Assembly: GCF_000008665.1 (NCBI RefSeq)
Contig: NC_000917.1
Span: forward strand, 1,140,001-1,172,000
Length of the DNA: 32,000 bases
Direction: 5' to 3'
DNA from: Archaeoglobus fulgidus DSM 4304
GTDB lineage: Archaea > Halobacteriota > Archaeoglobi > Archaeoglobales > Archaeoglobaceae
The position numbers were made by a program, and so were the translations under genes. A model generated the notes under the pieces. It saw nothing but the letters and a program-made list of their open reading frames with translations. It searched no databases and was not told where the DNA came from. Within the stretch, counting starts at the first letter, position 1. Each line of letters starts with the position of its first letter. This document shows, in pieces, positions 5,872 to 30,133 of this stretch.

Positions 5872-6692
5872 TCACTCCAGCAAGACGCGTATAACCGTCA
5901 GCGTTGAACTTCTGGCTATCTCCGGAATGCTTCCACCCCCGAGAACCACAACAAGCTTTCCGTTGCAAATCTCTTCTGCCAGCTGTTTAATCTTTACTGC
6001 TATCTCCCTGTAGTCCCTAACTTTCAGACCGATATCTCCGTAATCCCCGACGTGCGTGTCATGGCCGAAGTACCAGAAAAGGATGTCCGGATTGAAGTTC
6101 TTAGCCTGATCGCAGAACATTTCAACAGCATCTCTGTAAGAGTGGGTAAAGTAGCTGACGTCGATTTTTAGCCCGTCTTCCGATACGTAATCTCTGTCGC
6201 AAATGCAGAAGTGCAGCGCTTTGAAATCATTGAGCTCAATAAGCTCTCTCGTTCCATCGCCATGATGCGCGTCGGTGTCTATGATGGCAACCCTGAGCTC
6301 ACCAAACTTGTCGTAGAGGTTTTGAATCGCCAGAACCACGTCGTTGAAGCAGCAGTATCCCCAAAAGTAATCTCTGCCTGCATGATGCCCCCCAGCTCCG
6401 ATGTAGCAGAAGGCGTTTTTCAGCTCTTCGCAGTAAACCATCTCCGCTGCCCTAACAACTCCCCTGCGGAGTGCCAGGCTGTCGAGCAGAGAGGGTCCTT
6501 TTTCACCCCTTCAAGGTGCTCTTTGGTGTGTATTTTCAAAATCAGCTCCTCATCGACTGCTGGCGATTCGATAATCTTCAATTTTGGGCTCTCAATTTCT
6601 GCAAAAGCTTCGGGAAAGTCTCTCAGCCTTGTTCCCAGTGTGAGATAGCTTCTTCTGCTGAAAGAAGGGTGATAAAAAACACCAGTAAACAT
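5872..6692 (-). pseudogene. histone deacetylase/AcuC/AphA-family deacetylase, split by a 1-nt frameshift
   Basis: Two overlapping ORFs, 6420..6692 and 5872..6441, lie in different frames. Joined, they read ...STAWHSAG|GVVRAAEMVYCEEL...IGAGGHHAGRD...DTDAHHGDG...FGHDTHVGD. The frame break is at the C4 run 6461-6464 (G4 on the coding strand), where one more G would restore the frame. Confidence 0.8.
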
Positions 6693-6698
6693 AAAAAT

Positions 6699-8459
6699 TT
6701 AGGAAGACTTGAGTTCAGGGAAGTCGTCGTAGAAGTACTCGTGCTCCCCCTTCTCTCCCTTCTTCCTCTTCTCCTCCTCAATCTGCCTCAGCTCAACTCT
6801 CCTTATTTTACCGCTGATGGTCTTGGGCAGCTCGGGAACAAACTCGATTATCCTGGGTATCTTGTACCTCGCAAGAATATTCTTGCAGTGCATGAACAGC
6901 TCAAGAGCAAGCTCCCTTGATGGCTCGTAGCCCGGAGCAAGTATGACGAAGGCCTTGACGAGCTGATACCTTATGGGATGCGGGCTTCCAACAACAGCAG
7001 CCTCAGCAACTGCAGGGTGCTCAATAAGGGCGCTCTCAACCTCAAATGGTCCGACACGGTAATCAGAAGTTTTTATGACATCATCAGCCCTGCCAACAAA
7101 CCACCAGTACCCCTTCTCGTCGAAGAACGCCTTATCTCCCGTGTAGTAGTACTTTCCAACGAAAACTTTGGCCGTTTTCTCAGGGTCGCCCATGTACTCC
7201 TTGAACAGCCCAATCGGCCTCCAGCGATCAAGCCTGACGACGATGTGGCCAACCTCATTGGGCTTCGTTATTTCATTGCCCTCATCATCAACGAGAGTAA
7301 CGTCGTACATGAAGGTGGGCCTGCCGAAAGAGCCGGGAATGATTTTGCCTCCCTTGAACCACGGCGGGTTGCCTATCATTGCGGTGCTCTCCGTCTGGCC
7401 GTAGAAGTCCCTGATTTCCGTGTCGGTGTACTTCTTCCACTGCTCGTAGAGTTCGGGGTTGAGTGGTTCTCCAGCGCTAACGACATCCCTCAATGCCGAG
7501 TAGTCGTACTTTCCTATGTCTGCGAACATGAACAGCCTCCATGCTGTTGGCGGGGCGCAAAAGGTGTTGACCTTGAACTCGGACACAGCCTGAAGGTAAA
7601 GGTCACCGTTCAGCCTCGTGTAGTAGAAACCGGTCGCAGTGGCTCCGACGTTAAGAGGGGCAAAGAAGGAGCTCCACGCGTACTTCGCCCATCCCGGAGC
7701 GCTCAGGTTGTGGTGAATATCTCCCGGTTGCACATTGATTATGCATGCTGTCATGAGGTGGCCCACTGGGTAGGATGTAGCGGTGTGGGCAACTCTCTTC
7801 GGCAATCCCGTCGTTCCCGAGGTGAAGAAGCTGAAGATTATGTCGTCCCACTTCGTCTTTGCAGCCTCAGCTTCCGACGACTCCTTGCTAAGGGAATCGT
7901 AGCTCTCCCATCCGCTCCTGTCTCCGATAACAATTTTGACTTTTGGCTCCGCACCAACGTTGCTTAAAGCCTCATCAATTGTTTTGGCTGAAGCTTCGTC
8001 GGCCATAATTGCAACCGGCGGGTAAACTTTGAACCTGTATTCAAGGTCTCTGACCGTCATCGTTGTAGCGGTGGGAACTCCTATGAACCCTCCCTTGACA
8101 GTTGCAAAGGTTGCGAACCATATTGGGGGCAGGAGGGGAATCATCATGTAGAAGCTGTCCCCCTTCTCCACGCCGTGTCCCCTCAGGAAGTTAACAATCC
8201 TGTTTCCTTCAGCAGCAAACTGCTCGTAGGTGTATTCCTTCTTTTCTCCCGTCTCAATGTTCGACCATATCAGGGCCTTCTGATTCCCCCTATCCTTCAC
8301 GTGAACTCCCTCAAAGATTTCTTCCGCCCAGTTGAAGTACTCAGGCAGCTGCATCGTGTTCAGCTTTCTGAAAAACTCTTCCATGGCCTTTTCCTTCGTC
8401 TCATTGTCTGGCAACTTCGTCAATTCGATAAATTCCCTATATATCTCCTCCATCTTCAT
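6699..8459 (-). CDS. AMP-forming acyl-CoA synthetase (medium/short-chain acyl-CoA ligase family)
   Basis: 586-aa ORF with the motifs FTSGTTGLPKRV, YGQTES, YYTGD, GRADDVIK and PKTISGKIRR. Confidence 0.9.
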   Translation of the reverse strand: MKMEEIYREFIELTKLPDNETKEKAMEEFFRKLNTMQLPEYFNWAEEIFEGVHVKDRGNQKALIWSNIETGEKKEYTYEQFAAEGNRIVNFLRGHGVEKGDSFYMMIPLLPPIWFATFATVKGGFIGVPTATTMTVRDLEYRFKVYPPVAIMADEASAKTIDEALSNVGAEPKVKIVIGDRSGWESYDSLSKESSEAEAAKTKWDDIIFSFFTSGTTGLPKRVAHTATSYPVGHLMTACIINVQPGDIHHNLSAPGWAKYAWSSFFAPLNVGATATGFYYTRLNGDLYLQAVSEFKVNTFCAPPTAWRLFMFADIGKYDYSALRDVVSAGEPLNPELYEQWKKYTDTEIRDFYGQTESTAMIGNPPWFKGGKIIPGSFGRPTFMYDVTLVDDEGNEITKPNEVGHIVVRLDRWRPIGLFKEYMGDPEKTAKVFVGKYYYTGDKAFFDEKGYWWFVGRADDVIKTSDYRVGPFEVESALIEHPAVAEAAVVGSPHPIRYQLVKAFVILAPGYEPSRELALELFMHCKNILARYKIPRIIEFVPELPKTISGKIRRVELRQIEEEKRKKGEKGEHEYFYDDFPELKSS

Positions 8460-8505
8460 AACAACCTCCCTTACCTACATTTTTAATCACACATCTTTTA
8501 CATAG

Positions 8506-8513
8506 TATTTAAG
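8506..8513 (+). promoter_or_regulatory. putative TATA box (TATTTAAG) of the mutase operon
   Basis: AT-rich divergent intergenic region. The element is centred about 27 nt upstream of the ATG at 8537, which is the first mini-ORF. Confidence 0.35.
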
Positions 8514-8576
8514 AATTTTGATTCGAATTGAATTAAATGAAAAGTTTTAAGTTTTCAGAACAATGACATATGAACA

Positions 8577-10256
8577 ATGACGAATATAAATGAGAAAAGG
8601 AAAGAATGGGAAGAGAAATGTCTCAAACCGTGGTTGCAAAAAGCTGGGCAGAGAGAAGAAAAGTTCGAGACACTATCCGGCATTGAAGTTAATACAGTTT
8701 ATGATCCAACGGACATTGAACACATAGACTTTGTGAGAGACATCGGCTATCCGGGAGAGTTTCCCTTCACGAGGGGAGTTTATCCGAACATGTACCGCGG
8801 AAGGCTGTGGACTATGAGGCAGTTCTCGGGCTTTGGCACCGCAGAGGACACCAACAGAAGATGGAAGATGCTGCTCGAAGAGGGTGAGACGGGCTTGAGC
8901 ACAGCCTTCGACTTTCCAACTCTGATGGGCGTGGACAGCGATGACCCGCTTGCAGACGGAGAGGTGGGCAAAGTAGGAGTTGCCGTTGACACGCTTAAGG
9001 ACTTTGAGATTCTCTTCGACGGCATCCCGCTTGATAAGGTCTCGACGTCTTTCACCATCAACCCTCCTGCGGGTATCATACTGGCAATGTACGTTGCCAT
9101 CGCAGAAAAGCAGGGAGTTCCAAAGGAGAAAATCAGAGGGACAATTCAGAACGACATGCTGAAGGAATTCCACGCCCAGAACACTCTCGTTTTGCCTCCC
9201 GAGCCATCTCTCAAGATAATTGTTGACATCTTCGAGTGGGGAATTGAAAACGTGCCTAAATTCAACTTAATCAGCATCTCTGGCTATCACATCAGAGAGG
9301 CTGGCTCAACAGCAGTTCAGGAGCTTGCTTTCACAATTGCTGACGGAATGGCCTACGTTGAGGCTGCGATGGAGAGAGGGATAGACATTGACCGCCTTGC
9401 CCCACAGCTCAGCTTCTTCTTCAACTCCCACAACGACTTCTTTGAGGAGATTGCGAAGTTCAGGGCTGCAAGGAGGATGTGGGCCAAGATTATGAGGGAT
9501 GAATATGGAGCCAAGAATCCCCGCTCATGGTGGCTGAAGTTCCACACCCAGACAGCAGGCTGCTCTTTGACGGCTCAACAGCCCCTGAACAACATCGTGA
9601 GGACAACGATTCAGGCTATGGCTGCGGTGCTTGGCGGGACTCAATCATTGCACACCAACAGCTTTGATGAGGCTTGGGCTTTGCCGAGCGAGGAGGCCGT
9701 GAGAGTTGCACTGAGAACGCAACAGATTATCGCTTACGAGAGCGGAATTCCCAACGTTGTCGATCCGCTTGCAGGAAGCTACTACGTTGAGTGGCTTACT
9801 GACAAGATGGAGAAGCTCGCATGGAAGTACATCGAGGACATAAGGAAGATGGGTGAGGGCAGCATGCTCAGAGGTGTGCTTAAGGGCATAGAGAACGGGT
9901 TCTTTGTGAGAGAGATTTCAGATGCAGCTGCGAGATACCAGAGGGAGATTGAGGAGGGCAAAAGGATAGTTGTTGGCGTGAACAAGTTCACCATTGAGGA
10001 GGAGCTTAAGATTCCCATTCTGAAGGTTGACCCAGAAGTTCAGAGAAGGCAGATTGAAAGGCTGAGGAAGGTCAAGGCCGAGAGGGACAATGAGGCGGTG
10101 AAGGAGGCTTTGGAGTGGTTGAGAAACGCTGCCGAAAACGATGAAAATGTCATGCCTCCGATAATGGAGGCTGTTAAGGCCTATGCGACGATTGGAGAAA
10201 TAATGGGTGTGCTTAAGGAGGTTTACGGCACCTACAAGAAGCCGATAATCATCTGA
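8577..10256 (+). CDS. coenzyme-B12 acyl-CoA mutase large (catalytic) subunit; methylmalonyl-CoA mutase family with an isobutyryl-CoA-mutase-like Phe/Gln signature
   Basis: 559-aa ORF with FTRGVYPNMYRGRLWTMRQFSGFGT, GLSTAFDFPTLMG, GTIQNDMLKEFHAQNT, SISGYHIREAG and QSLHTNSFDEA. Confidence 0.9.
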   Translation: MTNINEKRKEWEEKCLKPWLQKAGQREEKFETLSGIEVNTVYDPTDIEHIDFVRDIGYPGEFPFTRGVYPNMYRGRLWTMRQFSGFGTAEDTNRRWKMLLEEGETGLSTAFDFPTLMGVDSDDPLADGEVGKVGVAVDTLKDFEILFDGIPLDKVSTSFTINPPAGIILAMYVAIAEKQGVPKEKIRGTIQNDMLKEFHAQNTLVLPPEPSLKIIVDIFEWGIENVPKFNLISISGYHIREAGSTAVQELAFTIADGMAYVEAAMERGIDIDRLAPQLSFFFNSHNDFFEEIAKFRAARRMWAKIMRDEYGAKNPRSWWLKFHTQTAGCSLTAQQPLNNIVRTTIQAMAAVLGGTQSLHTNSFDEAWALPSEEAVRVALRTQQIIAYESGIPNVVDPLAGSYYVEWLTDKMEKLAWKYIEDIRKMGEGSMLRGVLKGIENGFFVREISDAAARYQREIEEGKRIVVGVNKFTIEEELKIPILKVDPEVQRRQIERLRKVKAERDNEAVKEALEWLRNAAENDENVMPPIMEAVKAYATIGEIMGVLKEVYGTYKKPIII

Positions 10257-10265
10257 GGTGGTGAA

Positions 10266-10682
10266 ATGGAGAAAAAAATCAGAGTGCTCGTTGCGAAGGT
10301 AGGGCTTGATGGGCACGACAGGGGGGCGAAGGTTCTGGCGAGATTTCTGAGAGATGCTGGCTTTGAGGTCATCTACACTGGCCTTCACCGCACACCGCAG
10401 GAGGTGGCGATGGCTGCAGTGGATGAAGACGTGGATGTTGTGGGCATAAGTCTTCACAGCGGTGCTCATCTTGCTTTAGTGCCGAAGGTCATAAACTACA
10501 TAAGGGAATACGGGGGCAATCCAGATGAGATGCTGATCCTCGTTGGTGGAGTTATTCCGACAGACGATATTGTCGAGCTGAAAAAGATGGGGGTTGATGA
10601 AGTGTTTATTCCCGGCACCCCCATTTCGGAAATTGTTGAGTTTATCAAAACCAAGCTGCCAGAAAAGAGGAAGAAAGAATGA
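10266..10682 (+). CDS. acyl-CoA mutase small subunit (B12-binding domain)
   Basis: 138-aa ORF with the DxHxxG motif ([10 protein letters not shown]), SxL ([10 protein letters not shown]) and GG (LVGGVIP). The SD sequence GAGGTGGTGA lies upstream. Confidence 0.9.
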
Positions 10683-11719
10683 AACCTGAGGAAATTGTTG
10701 AGGGATTGCTTTCGGGCAACAGAAGGGCTTTGGCCAGAGCAATAACCTACGTTGAGAACGAGTATCCAGAGTCGAAGGAGATAATGAGACAAATTTTTGC
10801 CAAAACGGGCAGGGCTCACGTTGTCGGTTTGACAGGCTTTCCCGGCGTGGGAAAAAGCACTCTGGTGAGCAAGCTGACGGAGGAGTTCAGGAGAAGGGGA
10901 AAGAAGGTTGGTATCATCGCCATCGACCCCGGCTCGCCATTCACGGGAGGAGCGCTGCTGGGAGACAGACTGAGGCTGGACGGGATGGACTCAAGAAAAC
11001 AGCTTTGGACAGATCCGGGCATTTTCTTCAGAAGCATGAGCTCTCGCGGCAGGGCTGGAGGTTTGGCAGCCAAAACAGGAGATGTTGTAAGGCTGCTGGA
11101 TGCCTTCGGCTTCGACGTCATTCTCGTCGAAACTGTTGGGGCAGGGCAGAGCGAGGTGGACATCATTGAGGTTGCAGACACCTCGGTTGTCGTGATGATG
11201 CCTGAAACGGGGGATGAGATTCAGGTGAACAAGGCCGGAATCCTTGAGATTGGAGATATTTACGTTGTAAACAAGGCTGACTTGGGAGGGGCGGAGAAGG
11301 TGGAGCGCTGGCTGAGATACATGCTCTCCCTCGATGAGGAGAGCGTGCAGATGCTTTCTCAGATGACCCACGCTGATGAGGCGAGAGTGCAGAGTGGAGA
11401 GTTCTTTGAGCGTAGAAAGGGATGGAATCCACCCGTCATTAAGACCGTCGCCGACAGAGGAGAGGGGATAAAGGAGCTTGCGGATGCCATTGAGGAGCAT
11501 TTTGACTACATGAAGAAGACAGGGCTGATAGAGAAGAGGAGAAGGGAGAGGGTGAAGAGGGAGCTCTTTGAAATCGTGATGAACGACGTAATCAAGCTCG
11601 TCAAGGAGAAAACAAACTACAGGGATTTGTTGGTGAAGCTGCTGAAAGGTGAGACCGACCCCTACACCGCTGCAGAACAAATTGTCGAGGAGGTAATTCA
11701 CAATGCTGGCAAAGGATAG
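10679..11719 (+). CDS. meaB: MeaB/ArgK-type G-protein chaperone of B12 mutases
   Basis: 346-aa ORF with the P-loop [26 protein letters not shown] and NKAD. It overlaps the small subunit gene by ATGA. Confidence 0.9.
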
Positions 11720-12191
11720 CTCCCTCACGAGAACAGGGAAAGGGGAGATAGTAGACAAGGACTCCAGCTTCACATGGTATGTCGGGACAATTGATGAGGC
11801 AAACGCCTTCATCGGCCTTGCGAGAGTTTTCTCAAAGGACGAGAAGGTGAGGGAGACGCTTCTGGAGATTCAGAAAATGCTTTTCCTTGTGGGAGCTGAG
11901 CCCTCCCTTCAAAAGCTGAGCGAGAAGGATTTGGAGTGGATGCTTGAGAGAGTTGAGGAGTTTGAAAGGTCTGTGAAAAAGCCCCACTGCTTCATTATTC
12001 TTGAGAAGGATGAGAGCACCGCCTTTCTCAGTGTTGCAAGAGCAGTGGTGAGGAGGGCTGAAAGGCAGGCGGTGAGGCTCTACAGAGAGGGAAAAGCAAG
12101 GCTTCTGGTGGTTGAGTGGCTGAACAAGCTCAGCTACCTGCTTTACCTCATGATTCTGAAGGAAGGTGGAGGAGATTTTGAGGAAATTTAG
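11703..12191 (+). CDS. PduO-type ATP:cob(I)alamin adenosyltransferase (divergent N-terminus)
   Basis: 162-aa ORF with TRTGKGEI...[17 protein letters not shown]...[10 protein letters not shown]...LNKLSYLLY, as in PduO/MMAB-type enzymes. An SD sequence GAGGAGGT lies 8 nt upstream, inside the 3' end of meaB. Confidence 0.75.
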
Positions 12192-12202
12192 GAGGTGTTA
12201 GT

Positions 12203-13390
12203 TTGAGAGATGTGGCGGTTTTGGGAGTTGGAATGACGAAGTTCGGGAAGCATCCCGATAAATCTCTCGTCGATTTGTTTGCAGAGGCCTTTTATGAGGC
12301 CTTTGAGGAGTCCAACATCGAGCTGAAGGACATTCAGGCCTTATACTACGGTAACTTTGTTGGTGAGATGACGGACGGCTCAGGCAATCTTTCGGGCTTC
12401 ATGGCGGACGAGATAGGGCTGAGGGGTATACCAGCTATAAGATACGAGGGGGCGTGCGCTTCATCCAGCGTTGCTTTCAGGGAAGCTGTGAGGGCCGTTG
12501 CTGCAGGCTACTACGACATTGTTGCGGTTGGAGGGAGCGAGAGGCTCTACACCGCTGGAACGGAAATAGGAACGAGGGCTTTAGCGACTGCGGTAGATGG
12601 CGTTTACGAGATTACCGCAGGGCTGACGTTCCCCGGAGTTTTCGCCCTCGCAGCGAGGCTTTACTCCAAGAAGTATGAGATACCGCTTGAGGAGCTCAGA
12701 GAGATGATGGCGATGGTCTCCGTAAAGAACCACAGGTATGGGGCGATAAACCCCAAGGCGCAGTTCTACGGGAAGCTTGGTGATTTGAAGGTTGAGGATG
12801 TTCTGAACTCAAGGATGATAAGCTCGCCCCTAACGCTGCTGGACTGCTGCCCGATGACCGACGGTGGAAGCGCTGCAATCATTGCAGCTGCCGACTTGGC
12901 AGAGGAGCTCGTTGACACGCCCGTTTACGTAAGGGGAACAGGGCAATCGTCAGCGGGAGGGCTTTTCAGGCAGAAGGAGGATATCATCAGAGCGATACCG
13001 AGAAGGAAAGCTTCAGAGATGGCCTTTAAGGAGGCAAATATGACTCCCAAGGACATCGACTTTGTGGAGGTTCATGACTGCTTCACCATCGCCGAAATTA
13101 TCGCCTTAGAGGCCATGGGATTCTTCGAGTACGGGCAGGGATGCTATGCGGTGAAGGAGGGTGTAACGAGTATTGATGGTGACCTGCCAGTCAATCCAGA
13201 CGGCGGGCTGATTGGCAAGGGGCATCCTGTGGGTGCGACGGGAGTTTCGCAGGTTTACTCGGTGGTTAAGCAGCTAAGGGGAGAGTTCAAGGAGAATCCG
13301 GTGAAGGATGCGGAGACGGGAATGACCGACACGCTTGGCGGGGACTTCGGAACGCTGGTGAACATAATTTTGAGCGTTCACAGGAGGTGA
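12203..13390 (+). CDS. thiolase (archaeal SCP-x-type acetyl-CoA C-acyltransferase)
   Basis: 395-aa ORF with a TTG start preceded by GGAGGTG. It has the active-site Cys context EGACASSSVAF and C-terminal HDCF and GHPVGATG motifs. Confidence 0.85.
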   Translation: MRDVAVLGVGMTKFGKHPDKSLVDLFAEAFYEAFEESNIELKDIQALYYGNFVGEMTDGSGNLSGFMADEIGLRGIPAIRYEGACASSSVAFREAVRAVAAGYYDIVAVGGSERLYTAGTEIGTRALATAVDGVYEITAGLTFPGVFALAARLYSKKYEIPLEELREMMAMVSVKNHRYGAINPKAQFYGKLGDLKVEDVLNSRMISSPLTLLDCCPMTDGGSAAIIAAADLAEELVDTPVYVRGTGQSSAGGLFRQKEDIIRAIPRRKASEMAFKEANMTPKDIDFVEVHDCFTIAEIIALEAMGFFEYGQGCYAVKEGVTSIDGDLPVNPDGGLIGKGHPVGATGVSQVYSVVKQLRGEFKENPVKDAETGMTDTLGGDFGTLVNIILSVHRR

Positions 13391-13394
13391 AGGG

Positions 13395-13805
13395 ATGAGG
13401 TTCGTGGACTTCTTCAACGCCCTGCTGGAGGGGAAAGTCATAGGCCAGAAGTGCGGTGACTGCGGGAGCTACACCTGCCCGCCGAAGGCTACATGCGATA
13501 ACTGCGGAAGCAGGAATCTTGAGGCTGTTGAGCTGAGCGGTAAGGGTGTTATAAGGACCTTCACAACAACCTACGTGGCCCCCTCAGGCTACACAAATGA
13601 AGCTCCCTACACAGTTGCCATGGTCGAGCTCGATGAGGGGCCGTGGATTGTTGGGAGGATTGACTTGCCCAACGAGGAGATAGAGAAGTTCGGGCAGGAT
13701 TTAATCGGCGCAAGAGTTTCCGTTTACGGCAAGGAGTTCCCCACTGAGCCCTTCTATCCAGACAAGAAGAGAAGGGTTGTGCCGATGTTCAGGTTAGAGG
13801 GGTGA
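13395..13805 (+). CDS. DUF35 OB-fold/zinc-ribbon protein (thiolase partner)
   Basis: 136-aa ORF with the CGDCGSYTCPPKATCDNCGS ribbon followed by an OB-fold-like C-terminus. It lies immediately downstream of the thiolase. Confidence 0.85.
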   Translation: MRFVDFFNALLEGKVIGQKCGDCGSYTCPPKATCDNCGSRNLEAVELSGKGVIRTFTTTYVAPSGYTNEAPYTVAMVELDEGPWIVGRIDLPNEEIEKFGQDLIGARVSVYGKEFPTEPFYPDKKRRVVPMFRLEG

Positions 13806-14956
13806 AGATGAACTTCGAGCTTGATGAGGACCACAGAATGCTCCAGAATGCAGTGAGGGAGTTTGCAGAGAAGGAGATAATGCCCTACGGCAAGGAGTAT
13901 GACGAGAAGAGGGAGTATCCGATGGAGATTTTCAGAAAGGCTGCGAAGCTTGGCTATGTAGGGGCGAGCGTTCCTGAGGAGTACGGTGGAGCGGGGCTGG
14001 ATTACCTCGGAGAGGCTATCATCAGCGAAGAGCTTACAAGAGCTGACAGCAGCATTGGGACTGCAGTTGATCTGGCAATTCTCGGAGTTCCAATGGTTCT
14101 GAGATATGGAAGTGAGGAGCAGAAGGAGAAATACATCCCACCCGTCGTTCAGGGTAAAGCTCCTTCGGCAATAGCCATCACAGAGCCCGACTGCGGTACT
14201 GATGTCGCTGCCATGAGAACAAAGGCCGTTAAGGAGGGAGAGGAGTGGGTGATAAACGGCTCCAAGACCTTCATCACCAATGGAAGCGTTGCTGGGCACA
14301 CCATCGTCCTCGCAAAGACCGCTGAAGTCGAGCCTCCCCACAGAGGGATTTCAGCCTTTATCGTTGAGCCAGCATGGGAGGGGTACGAGGCGAGGAGAAT
14401 AGAGAAGATGGGGCTGAACTGCCACGATACGGCTGAGATAACGCTGAAAAATGTAAGAGTTCCCGCTGAAAACCTCCTCGGGGAGGAGAACAGGGGATTC
14501 TACCAGCTGATGGAGTTCTTCAACGAGAGCAGGGTTAAGATTGCAGCTCTCCACTTGGGAATGGCTGTTGGAGCTTACGAGAGAGCCTTGGAGTACGCGA
14601 AGCAGAGAAAGGCGTTCGGGAAAGCTTTGATAGAGCATCAGGCGATTCAGTTCAAGCTCGCCGACATGTGGAAGGATATCGAAGCTGCAAGGCTGCTGGT
14701 TTACAAGGCTGCGTGGCTTATTGACCAGGGTAAGCCCGTACCCGCCATAAGCTCAGCAGCGAAGCTCTTCGCCAGCGAGGCTGCTGTAAAGGTTACCTAT
14801 GAGGCTCTGCAGGTTTTTGGCGGCTACGGCTACAGCAAGGAGTACGACATCGAGCGCTACTACAGAGATGCAAGAGTCGGGACGATTTACGAGGGAACGA
14901 GCGAGGCCCAGAGGATTGTGATTGCGAGGAGTCTGATGGGGAGGGTTAAGCGGTAA
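13802..14956 (+). CDS. acyl-CoA dehydrogenase
   Basis: 384-aa ORF with ITEPDCGTDVA, FITNG and IYEGTSEAQRIVIAR. It overlaps the DUF35 gene by ATGA. Confidence 0.9.
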   Translation: MKMNFELDEDHRMLQNAVREFAEKEIMPYGKEYDEKREYPMEIFRKAAKLGYVGASVPEEYGGAGLDYLGEAIISEELTRADSSIGTAVDLAILGVPMVLRYGSEEQKEKYIPPVVQGKAPSAIAITEPDCGTDVAAMRTKAVKEGEEWVINGSKTFITNGSVAGHTIVLAKTAEVEPPHRGISAFIVEPAWEGYEARRIEKMGLNCHDTAEITLKNVRVPAENLLGEENRGFYQLMEFFNESRVKIAALHLGMAVGAYERALEYAKQRKAFGKALIEHQAIQFKLADMWKDIEAARLLVYKAAWLIDQGKPVPAISSAAKLFASEAAVKVTYEALQVFGGYGYSKEYDIERYYRDARVGTIYEGTSEAQRIVIARSLMGRVKR

Positions 14957-15737: not shown

Positions 15738-15813
<76 letters not shown>

Positions 15814-16363: not shown

Positions 16364-16888
16364 TCACTCGATCTTGATTTTCTTTCCGCTCGTCTTAGGC
16401 GTCTTCTTCTTCAGGATTACTTCAAGCACACCGTTGTTGTATCTCGCCTTCGCTGAGTCCGGATCGACCTCAGCGGGCAGTTCAACGGTCTCATAGTACT
16501 TCCTGTTCTCTCCCTCTGCCCTGATTTCTAGAGTTGTCTCGGTAGCGTTGAGCTCAATGTCGTCCTTGTTCACTCCTGGCATCTCGGCAATAACCTGAAT
16601 CTCGTTGTCAGTCTCTATGACGTCAACCAGCGGTCTCCTCTCTTCAATTCCAGTCTCCTTGATCGTGGGCTTGGTTCCGAACTCCCTTATTTCAGGCTTC
16701 CCGTCAGGCCCAATCCTGATTGAGAATCCCCTGACTATCGGTTTTATCTCTCCCGACTCAGCCTTTCTGAAGATTTCCTCGATGTCCCTCATCATCCTCT
16801 CGAATATGTCGTCTATGCCGAATCTGAAGAACTCATCGAAGATGTCCCATTCCTCATCCCAGTCCCTTCTCCTTCTCCTCCAAACCAT
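16364..16888 (-). CDS. hsp20: small heat shock protein, Hsp20/alpha-crystallin family
   Basis: 174-aa ORF with an alpha-crystallin domain (VDVIETDNEIQVIAEMPGVNKDDIEL...YNNGVLEVILKK). The SD sequence GGAGGTGA lies upstream. Confidence 0.9.
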   Translation of the reverse strand: MVWRRRRRDWDEEWDIFDEFFRFGIDDIFERMMRDIEEIFRKAESGEIKPIVRGFSIRIGPDGKPEIREFGTKPTIKETGIEERRPLVDVIETDNEIQVIAEMPGVNKDDIELNATETTLEIRAEGENRKYYETVELPAEVDPDSAKARYNNGVLEVILKKKTPKTSGKKIKIE

Positions 16889-16903
16889 ACAACCTCACCT
16901 CCT

Positions 16904-19108
<2,205 letters not shown>

Positions 19109-19119
19109 CTACCACCTCC

Positions 19120-19791
19120 TTACTTTATCATCCAAACAACTTCACCATTCTTTTCCTCTTTCTCAACCAACCCCTTTTCGTGAAGGGAGTTTAGGGCTCT
19201 TTCAACCTCCCTGTAAGGGAGCCTGAAGGTCTCGGCAATTTCCGCTGCCGTCCTAAGACCCTTTGCGAGGCCGAGCATGACGAGCCTTTCCAGGTCGTCG
19301 CTGACGACCCTCTCAATCTCGTTGAGCATCCTCTCAACGAACTGGTTGAATCTCATTGATAGGGTGCTCTGGACTCTTGAAAACCTCCTCTGGAGGTCTT
19401 CAGCCACTTTTAGGGCTCTGTAAATCTCCGAAATGGATTCGGCCTTCAGCCTCTCTATCATGTTGAACTCGTTCCGAATCTCCTTCATCAGGGATGGCAG
19501 GTCGTAATTTTCACTGTCCCTGATCTCAGCCCCGAACTTGTGGGGGGAAATGACAACCTCGAGGCGGAGACTTCTTGGAATGTAGTAGTACCTCTTCCTT
19601 CCCTCCTCGAAGCTCGACACTATTCCCGCCTTAACGAGCTTGTCGAGGTGCTCAAGCACGGCCTTCGGAGCCATGCCGAGATAGTACGAAATCTCGCTGA
19701 CGTAGCAGGGTTTTCTTGATAGCAACTGCAGTATCCTCCTCCTGCTCTCGTTTCCGAGAACGTCCATTATCGTCTCCGCCTCTATGTCCAT
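19120..19791 (-). CDS. hsr1: HSR1/Phr-family heat-shock transcriptional regulator (winged helix)
   Basis: The ORF is open from GTG 19821. ATG 19791 is preferred because GGTGGTGAG lies directly upstream. It has the wHTH LGNESRRRILQLLSRKPCYVSEISYYLGMAPKAVLEHLDKLVKAGIV and is the first gene of the regulator-cdc48-hsp20 operon. Confidence 0.85.
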   Translation of the reverse strand: MDIEAETIMDVLGNESRRRILQLLSRKPCYVSEISYYLGMAPKAVLEHLDKLVKAGIVSSFEEGRKRYYYIPRSLRLEVVISPHKFGAEIRDSENYDLPSLMKEIRNEFNMIERLKAESISEIYRALKVAEDLQRRFSRVQSTLSMRFNQFVERMLNEIERVVSDDLERLVMLGLAKGLRTAAEIAETFRLPYREVERALNSLHEKGLVEKEEKNGEVVWMIK

Positions 19792-19836
19792 CTCACCACC
19801 TCGGGGCACTAACCCCTTCACTCTTAATGTCGGTTA

Positions 19837-24091: not shown

Positions 24092-25276
24092 TCAAAAGTC
24101 CGTCATAATGCGGAACTGGTCTGTGTCGGGCTTCATGTGGCTCATGAATTTCCTTACAGCTCCCTCAACGTCTCTGGCCTTCGTTACAGCTCTGCCGACA
24201 ACTATGATGTCCGCTCCAGCGGCAATTACCTCCTCAACGTTTTCTGGCCTTATCCCACCTGCAACGGCGACGAGGACGCTGAACTTCTCCTTTATCTTTC
24301 CGGCAAGCATCCACGGAGGCTCTTTGTCCTCGCTGTCTATCGCTCTGTGAAGCTCAACGACGTTTGGTAAAACTCCAGCCTTCTGAATCTCTTCAAGCCT
24401 TTTAATCGGATCATCGACGTTCATCATGTCCACGTAGCTCAAAATTCCTGTTTTCTCCGCTTCCCTTATCCCCTTAACGATTGTGCTTGTGGGCGCGAGT
24501 CCCGAAATCACAACCGCGTTTGCGGTAGCGTCTGCAGCCATTCTCGCTTCGAGATTGCCAACATCGAGCGTCTTCAGGTCGAGGATGTAAAACGCATCGG
24601 GCTTCACCTCTCTGAGCTTCAGGATTACCTCACAGCCGTATCTCTTTGCCAAAGGCGTTCCAACCTCGAAAACGATGTGGTCGCTGTCAGGAATCTGCTC
24701 AAGAACCTTCAGCACCTCACCCAGATCTGGAATGTCGATGGCAATCTGCAGATATGGCGGGTCCCAGAGCTTCGTGAGCTTTCTTCCAACAAACGGGTGG
24801 AAACTGCGGTCCTTCTCGTAAAGCACGGTATCAACATCCGGGAAGTTCTGCATCGCCCTCTTTATTGCGAGCTTTGTGGCGCCATAGTTGTAGTAGTAAA
24901 TCTTGTGCTTGTTTTTGGCGTTTGGGTGGATGAAAACGCTTGCAACAACAACGTACTCGTCCGCCCTCTCCCTTGGGATTATTCCCTCCTCAACCGCATC
25001 CGCAACAGCCTTCGCCACTGCAGCTTGAGCCGGACCGAAAATAAGCTCAGCCTGATGCATGTCCTTGACCGTTACCTTTGGGACTATCACAGCAGGCGGC
25101 TTGGTTATCAGGTTTGGTCTGAGAACCGCGAGAAGCGGTGTGTGGCCTGCAGAAAGGTTGGCAAGAGCGTTGGCGAAGGCAATTCCGGCGGGGCTGTCCT
25201 TCGTGCCAATTATCAAATCAACGTGAGCCACTTCAAAACCCTCTCCGATAAGAGCCTCACCTATTCTGAACTCCAT
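24092..25276 (-). CDS. fae-hps: bifunctional formaldehyde-activating enzyme / 3-hexulose-6-phosphate synthase (Fae-Hps)
   Basis: 394-aa ORF. The N-terminal Fae domain reads MEFRIGEALIGEGFEVAHVDLIIGTKDSPAGIAFANALA. The C-terminal half is an OMPDC-fold HPS domain (LQIAIDIPD...ILDLKTLDVGN...VAVAGGI). Confidence 0.9.
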   Translation of the reverse strand: MEFRIGEALIGEGFEVAHVDLIIGTKDSPAGIAFANALANLSAGHTPLLAVLRPNLITKPPAVIVPKVTVKDMHQAELIFGPAQAAVAKAVADAVEEGIIPRERADEYVVVASVFIHPNAKNKHKIYYYNYGATKLAIKRAMQNFPDVDTVLYEKDRSFHPFVGRKLTKLWDPPYLQIAIDIPDLGEVLKVLEQIPDSDHIVFEVGTPLAKRYGCEVILKLREVKPDAFYILDLKTLDVGNLEARMAADATANAVVISGLAPTSTIVKGIREAEKTGILSYVDMMNVDDPIKRLEEIQKAGVLPNVVELHRAIDSEDKEPPWMLAGKIKEKFSVLVAVAGGIRPENVEEVIAAGADIIVVGRAVTKARDVEGAVRKFMSHMKPDTDQFRIMTDF

Positions 25277-27586: not shown

Positions 27587-28224
27587 GCCATCCAGAAGTA
27601 TAGTATTGCGGTTAAAATTGAAACGCTCAGGTTGTCCAGCCCCTTGGGAGTTACAGCCTCCACAACCGTTGCGAAAGCTGCCAGAGGAAGCAGCAGTGGA
27701 CCTGCAGAGCCGTGATAGTAGAGTGAAACCACCGAGAAGGAGGCAACGCATCCCAGAAACATAGCAACGCTGCCCTCCAGGCTTTTCTCGTCTCCCAAAA
27801 TCCTGAACTTTCTCTTACCATACCTACCCCCAATCAGAGATGCGAGACCGTCGCCATACGACATTGCCATTATCCCAACAGCTATGACATCAGGACGGTC
27901 AAAGAAAGCGTAGGCGAGAACGGTCCATGCAATCGAGTAGTAAACCAGCCCCAATCCGTGGCCTGCGACGCTCGTCCTGCTCGACAGCTTTACGGGTGAG
28001 TGGGGGCTCATCAAGAAGGTGAGAACGACGAAGGGAAAGGCAGCGAGAAAGGCCATGACGAACCTCGACTCAAAGAAGGGGAGGATGAAGGCTATGTTGC
28101 CAACCATTATGTGGAGAAATTTTCTGCTCACCACTTCATTTTTCAACGTCTTTTCCGATATAAGCAGAAGGGCTGCCACGTAGCCGTAAACCGAAATCAG
28201 TGGAAGCAAATCGGACATCTGCAA
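27583..28224 (-). CDS. dolichol/polyprenol kinase-like integral membrane protein (COG0170 / CTP-dependent kinase family)
   Basis: 213-aa polytopic ORF with a TTG start and the motif MSYGDGLASLIGGRYGKRKF. Confidence 0.7.
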   Translation of the reverse strand: MQMSDLLPLISVYGYVAALLLISEKTLKNEVVSRKFLHIMVGNIAFILPFFESRFVMAFLAAFPFVVLTFLMSPHSPVKLSSRTSVAGHGLGLVYYSIAWTVLAYAFFDRPDVIAVGIMAMSYGDGLASLIGGRYGKRKFRILGDEKSLEGSVAMFLGCVASFSVVSLYYHGSAGPLLLPLAAFATVVEAVTPKGLDNLSVSILTAILYFWMA

Positions 28225-28244
28225 CCGATTATATTAAGTATTTA

Positions 28245-28260
28245 AAAACTTTCTGAAAAC
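28245..28260. repeat. left copy of the 16-bp direct repeat AAAACTTTCTGAAAAC flanking the IS
   Basis: Identical to 29224..29239 and directly abutting the left terminal inverted repeat. Confidence 0.8.
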
Positions 28261-29223
28261 TGTAGTATCCCTAAATTATTTCACTACTAAACACCCACTT
28301 CATGTGAGAAAACTAACGAACAAAAAGATCAGGTGGATAATCAGACAGCTTGACAAGGGAGCTCCAGTAAAGGAAATAGCCGCTGTGATGAGAGTTACAC
28401 CAAGAAGAATCTACCAGCTTAAAAAACAATATGAGGAAACTGGCCAGATTCCAGAACTAAAACAAGCAGGAAGAAAGCCCAAACCAATTGACGAGAAAAC
28501 AGAGCAAATCATCCTGCAAGCTTACAACAAATACAGACTCAGCCCAGTACCTCTTGAAAAGCTGATAGAAAGGGATTACGGCATCCACATCTCCCATAAT
28601 ACAATCTACAAAGTTTTACTCAAACACGGTTTGGTGGAGGAGAACATGAGCAAGAAGAAACGAAGGAAATGGGTTAGGTACGAAAGAACCCACTCAATGT
28701 CTTTATGGCAGGGAGACTGGAAGAGGCTTGGAGAGAAATGGATTATAGCCTTCATGGATGATGCTTCCCGCTTTATTACTTGTTACGGAGTCTTCGATTC
28801 AGCTACGACTGAGAACACGATTAGAGTCCTGAAAGTGGGATTCAGGGAGTATGGCATTCCGGATGAGATCCTCACAGATCACGGAACTCAGTTTGTTGCA
28901 GCTAAAAGCAGAGAGAAGGCCAAGCATAGATTCAGGGAGTTTTTGGCCGAGAATGGAGTAAGGCATGTTCTTGCCAGAATAAACCATCCACAAACGAATG
29001 GAAAGATAGAGAGGTTCTTTGGTTTGATGGAGCAGAAGATCCATCTGTTTGATTCTTTGGATGAGTTCATTTATTGGTACAATTACGTTAAGCCTCACAT
29101 GAGCCTGAATTTCGACGAATTGGAGACTCCCTATCAGGCCTTTTTGAGGAAGCTACCTGCTGAAAGGGTGTTTGAGTACGGGAGGTGGTTGTTTGAGGAG
29201 TGAAATTAATTCGGGATATCACA
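28261..29223 (+). mobile_element. intact 963-bp insertion sequence (ISA0963-like; rve/DDE transposase, IS481/IS3-like)
   Basis: Imperfect 24-bp terminal inverted repeats: TGTAGTATCCCTAAATTATTTCAC (28261-28284) and the reverse complement of 29200-29223, TGTGATATCCCGAATTAATTTCAC. It holds a single transposase ORF. The length matches the IS name recalled from the A. fulgidus genome. Confidence 0.9.
28304..29203 (+). CDS. IS transposase (N-terminal HTH plus rve integrase core, DDE)
   Basis: 299-aa ORF with a GTG start. The catalytic region reads WQGDW...TDHGTQF...HPQTNGKIERFF. Confidence 0.9.
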   Translation: MRKLTNKKIRWIIRQLDKGAPVKEIAAVMRVTPRRIYQLKKQYEETGQIPELKQAGRKPKPIDEKTEQIILQAYNKYRLSPVPLEKLIERDYGIHISHNTIYKVLLKHGLVEENMSKKKRRKWVRYERTHSMSLWQGDWKRLGEKWIIAFMDDASRFITCYGVFDSATTENTIRVLKVGFREYGIPDEILTDHGTQFVAAKSREKAKHRFREFLAENGVRHVLARINHPQTNGKIERFFGLMEQKIHLFDSLDEFIYWYNYVKPHMSLNFDELETPYQAFLRKLPAERVFEYGRWLFEE

Positions 29224-29239
29224 AAAACTTTCTGAAAAC
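29224..29239. repeat. right copy of the 16-bp direct repeat AAAACTTTCTGAAAAC
   Basis: Identical to 28245..28260 and directly abutting the right terminal inverted repeat. Confidence 0.8.
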
Positions 29240-29269
29240 AGTTAATAGCAGACCTTCAGAGTTGAAGCG

Positions 29270-30133
29270 ATGAGATACGAAGAGCCGGTGTTCAGACCGC
29301 CAAGTGAGGCTTTCAGCCTCATAGTTCAGGCCACAATTGGCTGCTCATGGAACAGGTGCACCTTCTGCGGAATGTACAAGATGAAGAAGTTCAGGGTTAG
29401 GGACATTGAGGAGGTTAAAGAGGATTTTCGACTGGCAAAGGAAATTTACGGAGACGTGAGGAGAGTTTTCCTGGCTGACGGTAACGCTCTTGCCGCTGAT
29501 ACGGATTACCTCCTCGAAATTGCCGATTACGCAAACAAGCTCTTCAACCTTGAAAGGATAAGCTGCTACGCCACACCGCAGGACATCCTCGAAAAAAGCA
29601 AAGAAGAATTGAAAGAAATCAGAAATGCTGGGATTAAGCTGCTCTACGTCGGAATAGAGAGCGGTGATGATGAAATACTCGAAAGAATAAGGAAAGGTGT
29701 CAGTTCTAATGAAATAGCGGAAGCCTGCATGAAAGCCCACGAGTGCGGCTTTGAGCTTTCCGTTACGGTTTTAACGGGCATTGGGGGAAAGGAGAGGAGC
29801 TACAAAAACGCCAGAAACACAGCAAGGCTGCTAAACCGCATTTCTCCCAAATATACCGGAGTACTAACGTACATCCCCGTTCCGAACACGCCTTTATACG
29901 TGAAAATCAAAAGAGGGGAGTTTCTTCTACCAAACCCTCTGGAAAACCTTCTCGAACTGCGCTGGATGGTTGAGAGAATTGAGGCCAGGACAATCTTCCG
30001 CTGCAACCACGCCTCCAACTATTTGCCACTGAAGGGAACGCTGCCTGAAGACAGAGAAAAGCTGCTCAAGGCCATCGACTACGCCATAGCCCATCCGGAA
30101 GTCCTTAAGCCTGAGTGGCTGAGGGGGCTTTAA
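29270..30133 (+). CDS. radical SAM domain protein (unassigned subfamily)
   Basis: 287-aa ORF with the cluster motif GCSWNRCTFCGMY, then ADGNAL, YVGIESGDDEIL and a TIM-barrel-like pattern. Confidence 0.85.
   Translation: MRYEEPVFRPPSEAFSLIVQATIGCSWNRCTFCGMYKMKKFRVRDIEEVKEDFRLAKEIYGDVRRVFLADGNALAADTDYLLEIADYANKLFNLERISCYATPQDILEKSKEELKEIRNAGIKLLYVGIESGDDEILERIRKGVSSNEIAEACMKAHECGFELSVTVLTGIGGKERSYKNARNTARLLNRISPKYTGVLTYIPVPNTPLYVKIKRGEFLLPNPLENLLELRWMVERIEARTIFRCNHASNYLPLKGTLPEDREKLLKAIDYAIAHPEVLKPEWLRGL

Follow-up and report, generated by a model that had tools for sequence, protein, structure and literature searches.

A mutase operon of Archaeoglobus fulgidus annotated for methylmalonyl-coenzyme A is probably of the isobutyryl-coenzyme A type

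Which acyl-coenzyme A (acyl-CoA) is rearranged by the B12-dependent mutase that Archaeoglobus fulgidus DSM 4304 encodes at AF1288? The genes in question lie in a stretch of 32,000 nucleotides (contig NC_000917.1, positions 1,140,001 to 1,172,000 of the forward strand), referred to below as the window, which covers the AF1287-AF1298 region and in which the mutase genes are the counterpart of AF1288a/b. The published gene table of A. fulgidus lists, in the same order as the window, AF1287 (acs-6), AF1288a/b (mutase N- and C-terminal domain proteins), AF1289 (an ArgK-type GTPase) and AF1291 (a thiolase), and in papers on this organism AF1288a/b appear as 'putative methylmalonyl mutases' and are placed in propionate or odd-chain metabolism. 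Databases name the homologues of the large subunit 'methylmalonyl-CoA mutase family protein'. An initial annotation made from the sequence had instead proposed that the operon is no methylmalonyl-/succinyl-CoA module and that it encodes a mutase of the isobutyryl-CoA type, wired to activation, dehydrogenation and thiolysis. Our alignments, the Phe/Gln pair of Streptomyces IcmA and the conserved gene context agree with that proposal. We consider it probable that positions 8577-12191 encode a split (alpha/beta) adenosylcobalamin-dependent isobutyryl-CoA-type mutase that feeds beta-oxidation, with a MeaB chaperone and a PduO-type adenosyltransferase of its own.

In methylmalonyl-CoA mutase the carboxylate of the substrate is bound by Tyr89 and Arg207, in the numbering of Propionibacterium shermanii MutB, and Phe and Gln at these two places are the rule for isobutyryl-CoA mutase. 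The large subunit encoded in the window lacks the Tyr/Arg pair: its residue 83 is Phe (TTC, nucleotides 8823-8825) and its residue 201 is Gln (CAG, nucleotides 9177-9179). Residue-level alignments were taken from a phmmer/HMMER search of all PDB sequences, in which Phe83 falls opposite the Tyr of 'WTIRQYAGF' and Gln201 opposite the Arg of 'FMVRNTY' in both P. shermanii MutB (1REQ) and human MMUT (2XIJ), with no gaps nearby; the aligned residues are MutB Tyr89 and Arg207. This gap-free alignment upholds the homology claimed in the initial annotation, and the MutB motifs quoted there match the solved sequence. The catalytic residues are kept as Tyr237, His238 and Gln191 (the equivalents of Tyr243, His244 and Gln197). 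Of the features of an IcmA-type enzyme, Phe at the Tyr89 site, Gln at the Arg207 site, the catalytic residues and a separate B12 subunit with a DxHxxG motif are present. In the solved HcmA structure (4R3U) Ile stands opposite Phe83, Gln opposite Gln201, and Asp117 opposite Ala110.

For comparison with Streptomyces IcmA we used real Streptomyces proteins of 566 amino acids, which several sources name 'isobutyryl-CoA mutase large subunit' and which are 93-96% identical to the IcmA query; only these database proteins serve as evidence. Phe and Gln occupy the two specificity columns in 120 of 120 of these orthologues ('RQFAGFG', 'YIAQKEW'), and the Phe/Gln rule has thereby been checked for IcmA on retrieved sequences. 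A mutase on a plasmid of Streptomyces canus did not serve as an anchor, since it is not the chromosomal IcmA orthologue. Against the IcmA orthologue P0304 the large subunit is 51% identical over its full length, with Phe aligned to Phe and Gln to Gln. When the Archaeoglobaceae and Streptomyces IcmA were left out of the Phe/Gln set, five of 526 aligned positions (83, 113, 201, 205 and 429) separated Phe/Gln from Tyr/Arg proteins family-wide. The ranking of PDB matches is the same for the IcmA orthologue and for the window protein: HcmA leads, methylmalonyl-CoA mutases follow, and IcmF comes far behind. Because a genuine IcmA orthologue is equally similar to methylmalonyl-CoA mutases, overall similarity is no argument against an isobutyryl-CoA mutase identity.

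The Phe/Gln pair is widely shared. In a set of 201 sequences that reaches down to 59% identity (the 120 best database proteins, 80 genome loci and the window protein), every member, the 200 closest homologues included, has Phe, Ala and Gln at positions 83, 110 and 201. The nearest of them, 96-97% identical, come from Archaeoglobus species and metagenome-assembled genomes, and the carriers extend through the Archaeoglobaceae (Archaeoglobus, Ferroglobus, Geoglobus) to many haloarchaea, Bathyarchaeia, Bipolaricaulota, Desulfobacterota, Chloroflexota, Aquificota and Thermotogae. This invariance across homologues marks a large conserved class and no local oddity or sequencing error. Among the best 150 representatives of clusters formed at 50% identity, 69 have Tyr/Ala/Arg, 14 have Phe/Ala/Gln, one (P0124) has Ile/Asp/Gln, and dozens show other combinations. 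Several further features of these relatives were seen in passing. Dozens of representatives in the range P0125-P0267, which are 38-52% identical to the window protein, carry neither Tyr/Arg, Phe/Gln nor Ile/Asp/Gln (the triplets include VVG, IVP, NVS, QTP, LVG and IIE), and their substrates are presumably uncharacterised. Three Phe/Gln large subunits, P0172 (913 amino acids), P0192 (887 amino acids) and P0197 (683 amino acids), have long C-terminal extensions with the substrate domain first, unlike IcmF.

The large subunit opens a run of seven tightly coupled genes, with an acyl-CoA synthetase gene transcribed away from it on the other strand. The features are as follows.

6699-8459, minus strand: AMP-forming short/medium-chain acyl-CoA synthetase (the ligase), divergent from the mutase operon, identified by family and PDB matches
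8460-8576, no strand: AT-rich divergent promoter region of 117 base pairs with two TTTAAG boxes
8577-10256, plus strand: acyl-CoA mutase large (substrate-binding) subunit, probably of isobutyryl-CoA-mutase type, 559 amino acids (TIGR00641, 809 bits)
8826-8828, 8913-8915, 9171-9173, 9180-9185 and 9675-9677, plus strand: codons of the motif residues 84, 113, 199, 202-203 and 367 of the large subunit
10266-10682, plus strand: small adenosylcobalamin-binding subunit, 138 amino acids (TIGR00640, 174 bits), with DxHxxG at nucleotides 10308-10325
10679-11719, plus strand: MeaB-type G-protein chaperone (TIGR00750, 484.8 bits against a cutoff of 240.75), with the P-loop GFPGVGKS at residue 53
11703-12191, plus strand: probable PduO-type ATP:cob(I)alamin adenosyltransferase with a divergent N-terminus (TIGR00636, 97.6 bits against a cutoff of 108.45)
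12203-13390, plus strand: thiolase of SCP-x/archaeal type with a TTG start and the motif GACASS (NF004720, 414 bits, below cutoff)
13395-13805, plus strand: DUF35 protein with zinc ribbon and OB fold (Pfam zf-ChsH2 and OB_ChsH2_C)
13802-14956, plus strand: acyl-CoA dehydrogenase of short/medium straight-chain type (acyl-CoA dehydrogenase models; solved relatives at 284-327 bits)

Family searches recovered all of the gene content given in the initial annotation, and the tight coupling described there was seen as well. The stop codon of the small-subunit gene and the start of meaB share an ATGA at 10679-10682, the meaB and adenosyltransferase genes overlap by 17 nucleotides, GGAGGTG precedes both the thiolase and the DUF35 gene, and the DUF35 and dehydrogenase genes share a GTGA at 13802-13805. 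In the promoter region the TTTAAG boxes lie at 8508-8513 and 8546-8551, are kept in the close relatives L001, L009 and L022, and probably serve, to judge from the sequence, as archaeal TATA boxes for the promoters of ligase and mutase. An inverted repeat of 9 nucleotides (8538-8546 and 8549-8557) overlaps the second box. An Rfam scan of the window found no cobalamin riboswitch and matched only two tRNAs.

Of the B12-related partners, the small subunit has the motif DGHDRG at residues 15-20, and its best solved relatives are 2YXB, a 'coenzyme B12-dependent mutase', followed by the HcmB small subunit. MeaB-type chaperones load and repair the cofactor of B12 mutases. Homology of the adenosyltransferase is clear, its solved relatives including ST1454, TA0546, PH0671 and the bacterial and human PduO-type enzymes; by eye, its N-terminal ATP-binding stretch (window 11703-11760) looks shorter than the usual motif. 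It is also the faster-evolving protein, with 51-85% identity among Archaeoglobaceae against 85-97% for the large subunit.

The remaining genes of the locus are of the fatty-acid oxidation kind. By synteny the ligase is AF1287, annotated as 'acs-6, acetyl-CoA synthetase'. Among solved structures it is closest to 8BIQ, '4-hydroxybutyrate--CoA ligase 1', a broad-range archaeal short-chain enzyme (666 bits); the archaeal medium-chain acyl-CoA synthetase 3ETC scores 415 bits and acetyl-CoA synthetases about 220 bits. The best NCBIfam family is acyl-CoA synthetase MbcS (449 bits, below cutoff). In acetate-specific acyl-CoA synthetases a Trp closes the pocket; read by eye, the motif 'FYGQTE' of the ligase has Gly at that place, and the catalytic Lys motif 'SGKIRR' is present. 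The sequence of the ligase is nearer to those of broad short/medium-chain and 2-methylbutyrate-type synthetases than to that of acetyl-CoA synthetase. For the dehydrogenase, the highest-scoring solved structures are acyl-CoA and butyryl-CoA dehydrogenases from bacteria and the mammalian enzymes SCAD and MCAD (284-327 bits); the isobutyryl-CoA dehydrogenase ACAD8 scores 239 bits. The thiolase keeps its nucleophile motif and matches the acetyl-CoA acetyltransferase model NF053570 at 372 bits, below cutoff. DUF35 proteins are the usual partners of archaeal thiolases, and the one encoded here shows a weak match to BbsA.

The acyl-CoA synthetase gene is followed immediately downstream by one of the histone-deacetylase family (AcuC-like; window 5872-6692, minus strand), which in the window consists of two overlapping open reading frames in different frames (6692-6420 and 6441-5872) and in the loci L004 (7320-7970) and L007 (7288-7932) of a single frame. 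The split could reflect a frameshift, a pseudogene or a sequencing error, or the gene could hint at lysine-deacetylase control of the ligase. Members of the same family also occur near the mutase cluster in a second Archaeoglobaceae gene order (L002 14846-15574 and L003 14927-15655).

Two gene orders are found in the Archaeoglobaceae. One is that of the window, with the divergent ligase followed by large subunit, small subunit, MeaB, adenosyltransferase, thiolase, DUF35 protein and dehydrogenase; in the other, the genes for large subunit, small subunit, MeaB and adenosyltransferase are immediately preceded by that of a different dehydrogenase paralogue (about 48% identical). An acyl-CoA dehydrogenase gene therefore adjoins the mutase-MeaB-adenosyltransferase block in both. 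In a wider survey the six nearest open reading frames of 22 diverse Phe/Gln loci were compared with Pfam, and the commonest neighbour families were acyl-CoA dehydrogenase (10), AMP-binding ligase (7), thiolase (5) and CobA-type adenosyltransferase (4), with enoyl-CoA hydratase and electron-transfer flavoprotein at 2 each. A Haloterrigena plasmid copy is accompanied by a B12 subunit, MeaB, acyl-CoA dehydrogenase, a MaoC hydratase, an AMP-binding protein and 3-hydroxyacyl-CoA dehydrogenase. The 25 neighbour families most often met at the 22 loci include neither an epimerase nor a carboxyltransferase. Likewise, Pfam scans of the window's other sizeable open reading frames (29 of at least 100 amino acids) found no epimerase of glyoxalase fold, no carboxyltransferase and no biotin enzyme, in accordance with the earlier statement that the window holds no epimerase, carboxylase or transcarboxylase.

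Genes of that kind are listed elsewhere in A. fulgidus. The gene table places AF2215 (mcmA1, the large part), AF2216 (mmdC, a biotin carrier), AF2217 (mmdA, a carboxyltransferase), AF2218 (a glyoxalase-type protein with the methylmalonyl-CoA epimerase fold) and AF2219 (mcmA2, the B12 part) in a separate cluster. The initial annotation had asked for a second, epimerase-linked mutase in the genome, and AF2215-AF2219 is annotated as such in the literature, which is our source for it. No MeaB or adenosyltransferase gene is listed with that cluster, so those of the AF1288 operon may serve both mutases.

From the residues, the protein families, the gene order and their conservation we infer what the substrate is, in which direction the flux runs and that the mutase is linked to the ligase, dehydrogenase and thiolase. 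Taken at the level of sequence, the operon most likely converts branched four-carbon acids into straight ones. The divergent ligase would activate a short branched acid, with valine breakdown as the other possible source of isobutyryl-CoA. The adenosyltransferase would make adenosylcobalamin and MeaB would gate its loading onto the small subunit, after which homolysis of the Co-C bond would set off a radical rearrangement of an uncharged aliphatic acyl-CoA in which the CoA-carbonyl group moves by a 1,2-shift, with Phe83 and Gln201 standing in for the Tyr/Arg pair that holds the carboxylate in methylmalonyl-CoA mutase. The butyryl-CoA so formed would be oxidised by the acyl-CoA dehydrogenase of the operon, the next two steps would fall to a hydratase and a 3-hydroxyacyl-CoA dehydrogenase encoded elsewhere, and the thiolase/DUF35 pair would release two acetyl-CoA.

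Several observations weigh against this assignment. It rests on two residues and their context. A review records that simple swaps of specificity residues gave no active enzymes, which means that other determinants exist. Neither the operon nor the window contains an enoyl-CoA hydratase or a 3-hydroxyacyl-CoA dehydrogenase, and the description of the module as self-contained in the initial annotation has to be given up. A literature search of titles and abstracts found no report of Archaeoglobus growth on isobutyrate. The large subunit also departs from IcmA around the pocket: Ser84, Phe113, His199, Asn202, Thr203 and Trp367 (SFHNTW) are present in 78 of 78 Archaeoglobaceae orthologues, and the same six positions read A, M, I, K, E and L in all 120 Streptomyces IcmA proteins and in 88 of 136 other Phe/Gln proteins. 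Identity with characterised IcmA at these flanking positions, a comparison that we added ourselves and that is no established criterion, was thus not found, and given this difference the exact substrate can only be inferred. Within the motif, Asn202-Thr203 is the state of methylmalonyl-CoA mutases. The initial annotation had remarked that the NTLVLP segment differs from bacterial isobutyryl-CoA mutase; the difference is real and clade-specific; Thr two places after the Gln occurs in bacterial Phe/Gln enzymes too, and an effect on specificity is only a possibility. Finally, in distance trees (neighbour-joining, 100 bootstraps) the Phe/Gln proteins were monophyletic in 1 of 100 bootstraps, with deep nodes below 25%; support of 79-100% was obtained only for a clade of Archaeoglobaceae, haloarchaea and Bipolaricaulota/Acetothermia/Fraserbacteria/Thermotogae, all of them Phe/Gln. 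The most similar Tyr/Arg protein, P0123, whose locus has an unrelated metagenome context, is 56% identical to the window protein, and IcmA 53%.

These flanking residues lend some weight to another reading, in which the enzyme is of the Phe/Gln type and its main substrate is a different uncharged acyl-CoA (2-methylbutyryl-CoA/n-valeryl-CoA, isovaleryl-CoA/pivalyl-CoA or a longer branched one) set by the Archaeoglobaceae-specific residues near the pocket. Besides the contrast of SFHNTW with the AMIKEL of IcmA and most other Phe/Gln proteins, there is co-variation between positions 113 and 203: 108 sequences have M/E, 11 have F/T and 5 have M/T. Position 113 is also three residues away from Ala110, whose counterpart in the HcmA alignment is Asp117, a residue in contact with the substrate. 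The best family of the ligase and one of its best solved relatives are tied to 2-methylbutyrate, and IcmF also turns over isovaleryl-CoA and pivalyl-CoA. Yet both established determinants are exactly those of isobutyryl-CoA mutase, and the six clade-specific positions do not belong to them; moreover, the adjacent dehydrogenase resembles a straight short-chain enzyme, and the thiolase/DUF35 pair suits cleavage of acetoacetyl-CoA. We regard this reading as rather unlikely. Along the same line, we would put forward only as a speculation that the Archaeoglobaceae enzymes form a distinct hyperthermophilic subtype of the Phe/Gln class whose motif confers a substrate range new for B12 mutases, for example 2-methylbutyryl-CoA/n-valeryl-CoA or longer branched acyl-CoAs.

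That the operon encodes a methylmalonyl-CoA mutase, as annotated, for propionate or odd-chain fatty-acid metabolism appears highly improbable. The database names and the A. fulgidus papers on AF1288a/b say so, solved methylmalonyl-CoA mutases match the large subunit at 486-521 bits, and Asn202-Thr203 fits; against this, both carboxylate-binding residues are replaced, invariantly in 200 homologues, the epimerase and carboxyltransferase genes are not nearby and have a separate cluster in the genome lineage, the equivalog model NF006944 scores 654 bits against its cutoff of 876, and the bona fide IcmA orthologue is just as similar to methylmalonyl-CoA mutases. Reassignment away from methylmalonyl-CoA mutase is, on these sequence grounds, well supported. 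A mutase for 2-hydroxyisobutyryl-CoA/3-hydroxybutyryl-CoA (of the HCM or RCM type) is suggested by the top PDB match, HcmA (4R3U, 596 bits), and by HcmB as second-best relative of the small subunit. IcmA orthologues too have HcmA as their best PDB match, however, and the determinants are absent, with Ile90 of HcmA replaced by Phe83 and Asp117 by Ala110; in the RCM variant position 117 is Val. The family does contain true Ile/Asp/Gln proteins, the lone representative P0124 being of the HCM type as in solved HcmA, and these are distinct from the window protein. There is accordingly very little probability left for an enzyme of this type.

As a probable isobutyryl-CoA-type mutase, the window system can be set beside four characterised or proposed systems. 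Streptomyces IcmA/IcmB (EC 5.4.99.13) is likewise split into a large subunit of about 560 amino acids and a small B12 subunit, and IcmA has in common with the window protein the Phe/Gln pair, the catalytic Tyr/His, 51-53% full-length identity and an insertion, 'G(S/P)..G(V/I)L(K/R)GIE(N/D)G(F/W)F', which HcmA and methylmalonyl-CoA mutases lack. The window system differs in being archaeal and hyperthermophile-like, in having adjacent subunit genes that share an operon with MeaB, adenosyltransferase and beta-oxidation genes, in the six residues near the pocket (SFHNTW against AMIKEL), and in a role that is probably catabolic and not the supply of polyketide precursors. IcmF (4XC6 and related structures) combines the functions of B12 domain, MeaB-like GTPase and substrate barrel, and its Phe598 and Gln742 are the same Phe/Gln determinants; HMMER coordinates are consistent with Gln201 matching IcmF chain residue 762 (742 plus a 20-residue tag). 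Unlike the three genes here, IcmF is a single polypeptide of B12 domain, GTPase and substrate domain, and similarity to it is much lower (303 bits; 381 bits for the NCBIfam IcmF model NF045497 against a cutoff of 1500). HcmA/HcmB is the nearest solved structure (52% identity), with split architecture and Gln at the Arg207 position; its hydroxyl-binding Asp is gone in the window protein. Methylmalonyl-CoA mutases share the fold, the cofactor, dependence on MeaB and 48-49% identity, and archaeal forms such as AF2215/AF2219 are also split; the differences lie in the Tyr89/Arg207 pair and in the epimerase and carboxyltransferase genes, which are unlinked to the window operon and in A. fulgidus accompany AF2215-AF2219.

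The closest precedent is bacterial. In Syntrophothermus lipocalidus, which does isomerise isobutyrate to butyrate, Slip_0757-0760 encode an adenosyltransferase, an N-terminal-domain subunit, a C-terminal-domain subunit and a MeaB-like protein, proposed to form an isobutyryl-CoA mutase, and homologous clusters were noted in 'other prokaryotes' (PMC5017805). That cluster has the same four components and the same proposed role, from isobutyrate to butyrate and on into beta-oxidation; it differs in being bacterial and in belonging to an organism that shows the isomerisation, and both clusters are genomic predictions, likened here by their components and not by sequence. Mislabelling of isobutyryl-CoA mutases as methylmalonyl-CoA mutase is an already known problem, 'isobutyryl-CoA mutase subunit B' is in use in one archaeal genome annotation, and in a 2010 review isobutyryl-CoA mutase was known from bacteria only. 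The literature search found no paper reassigning AF1288a/b or assaying an archaeal enzyme of the Phe/Gln type. The novelty claimed in the initial annotation therefore stands in part: no archaeal assay was found in the literature, but the same four-component cluster has been proposed for S. lipocalidus and enzymes of the Phe/Gln type occur widely among archaea and bacteria. With an equivalent four-gene cluster proposed earlier, the novelty is modest and involves no new mechanism or class of system.

Elsewhere in the window, an operon of an ArsR/TrmB-type regulator, a Cdc48 AAA ATPase and Hsp20 (16364-19821, minus strand) matches the A. fulgidus heat-shock operon AF1298-AF1296, and a TFB gene is also present. 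A fused Fae-Hps gene (formaldehyde-activating enzyme and hexulose-phosphate synthase) lies at 24092-25276 on the minus strand, and the two tRNA genes at 2756-2830 and 15739-15813 are on the minus strand as well. A transposase with rve integrase core and helix-turn-helix domains (28304-29203) falls in the stretch of lowest GC content (0.446 over 28001-30000) and is probably an insertion sequence.

An isobutyryl-CoA-type function would correct the long-standing annotation of AF1288a/b, through which metabolic models of Archaeoglobus have come to assign these genes to propionate or odd-chain metabolism. Hundreds of archaeal and bacterial genes are mislabelled in the same way, among them those of most of the haloarchaea sampled. 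For carbon-skeleton isomerisation, a hyperthermophilic mutase of this type that has a chaperone and an adenosyltransferase of its own would be a robust candidate. For hyperthermophilic archaea the operon predicts a route by which carbon from isobutyrate or valine would pass through butyryl-CoA to acetyl-CoA, and if the Archaeoglobaceae enzymes do form a distinct subtype, they may let sulfate- and iron-reducing archaea feed branched acids into complete oxidation.

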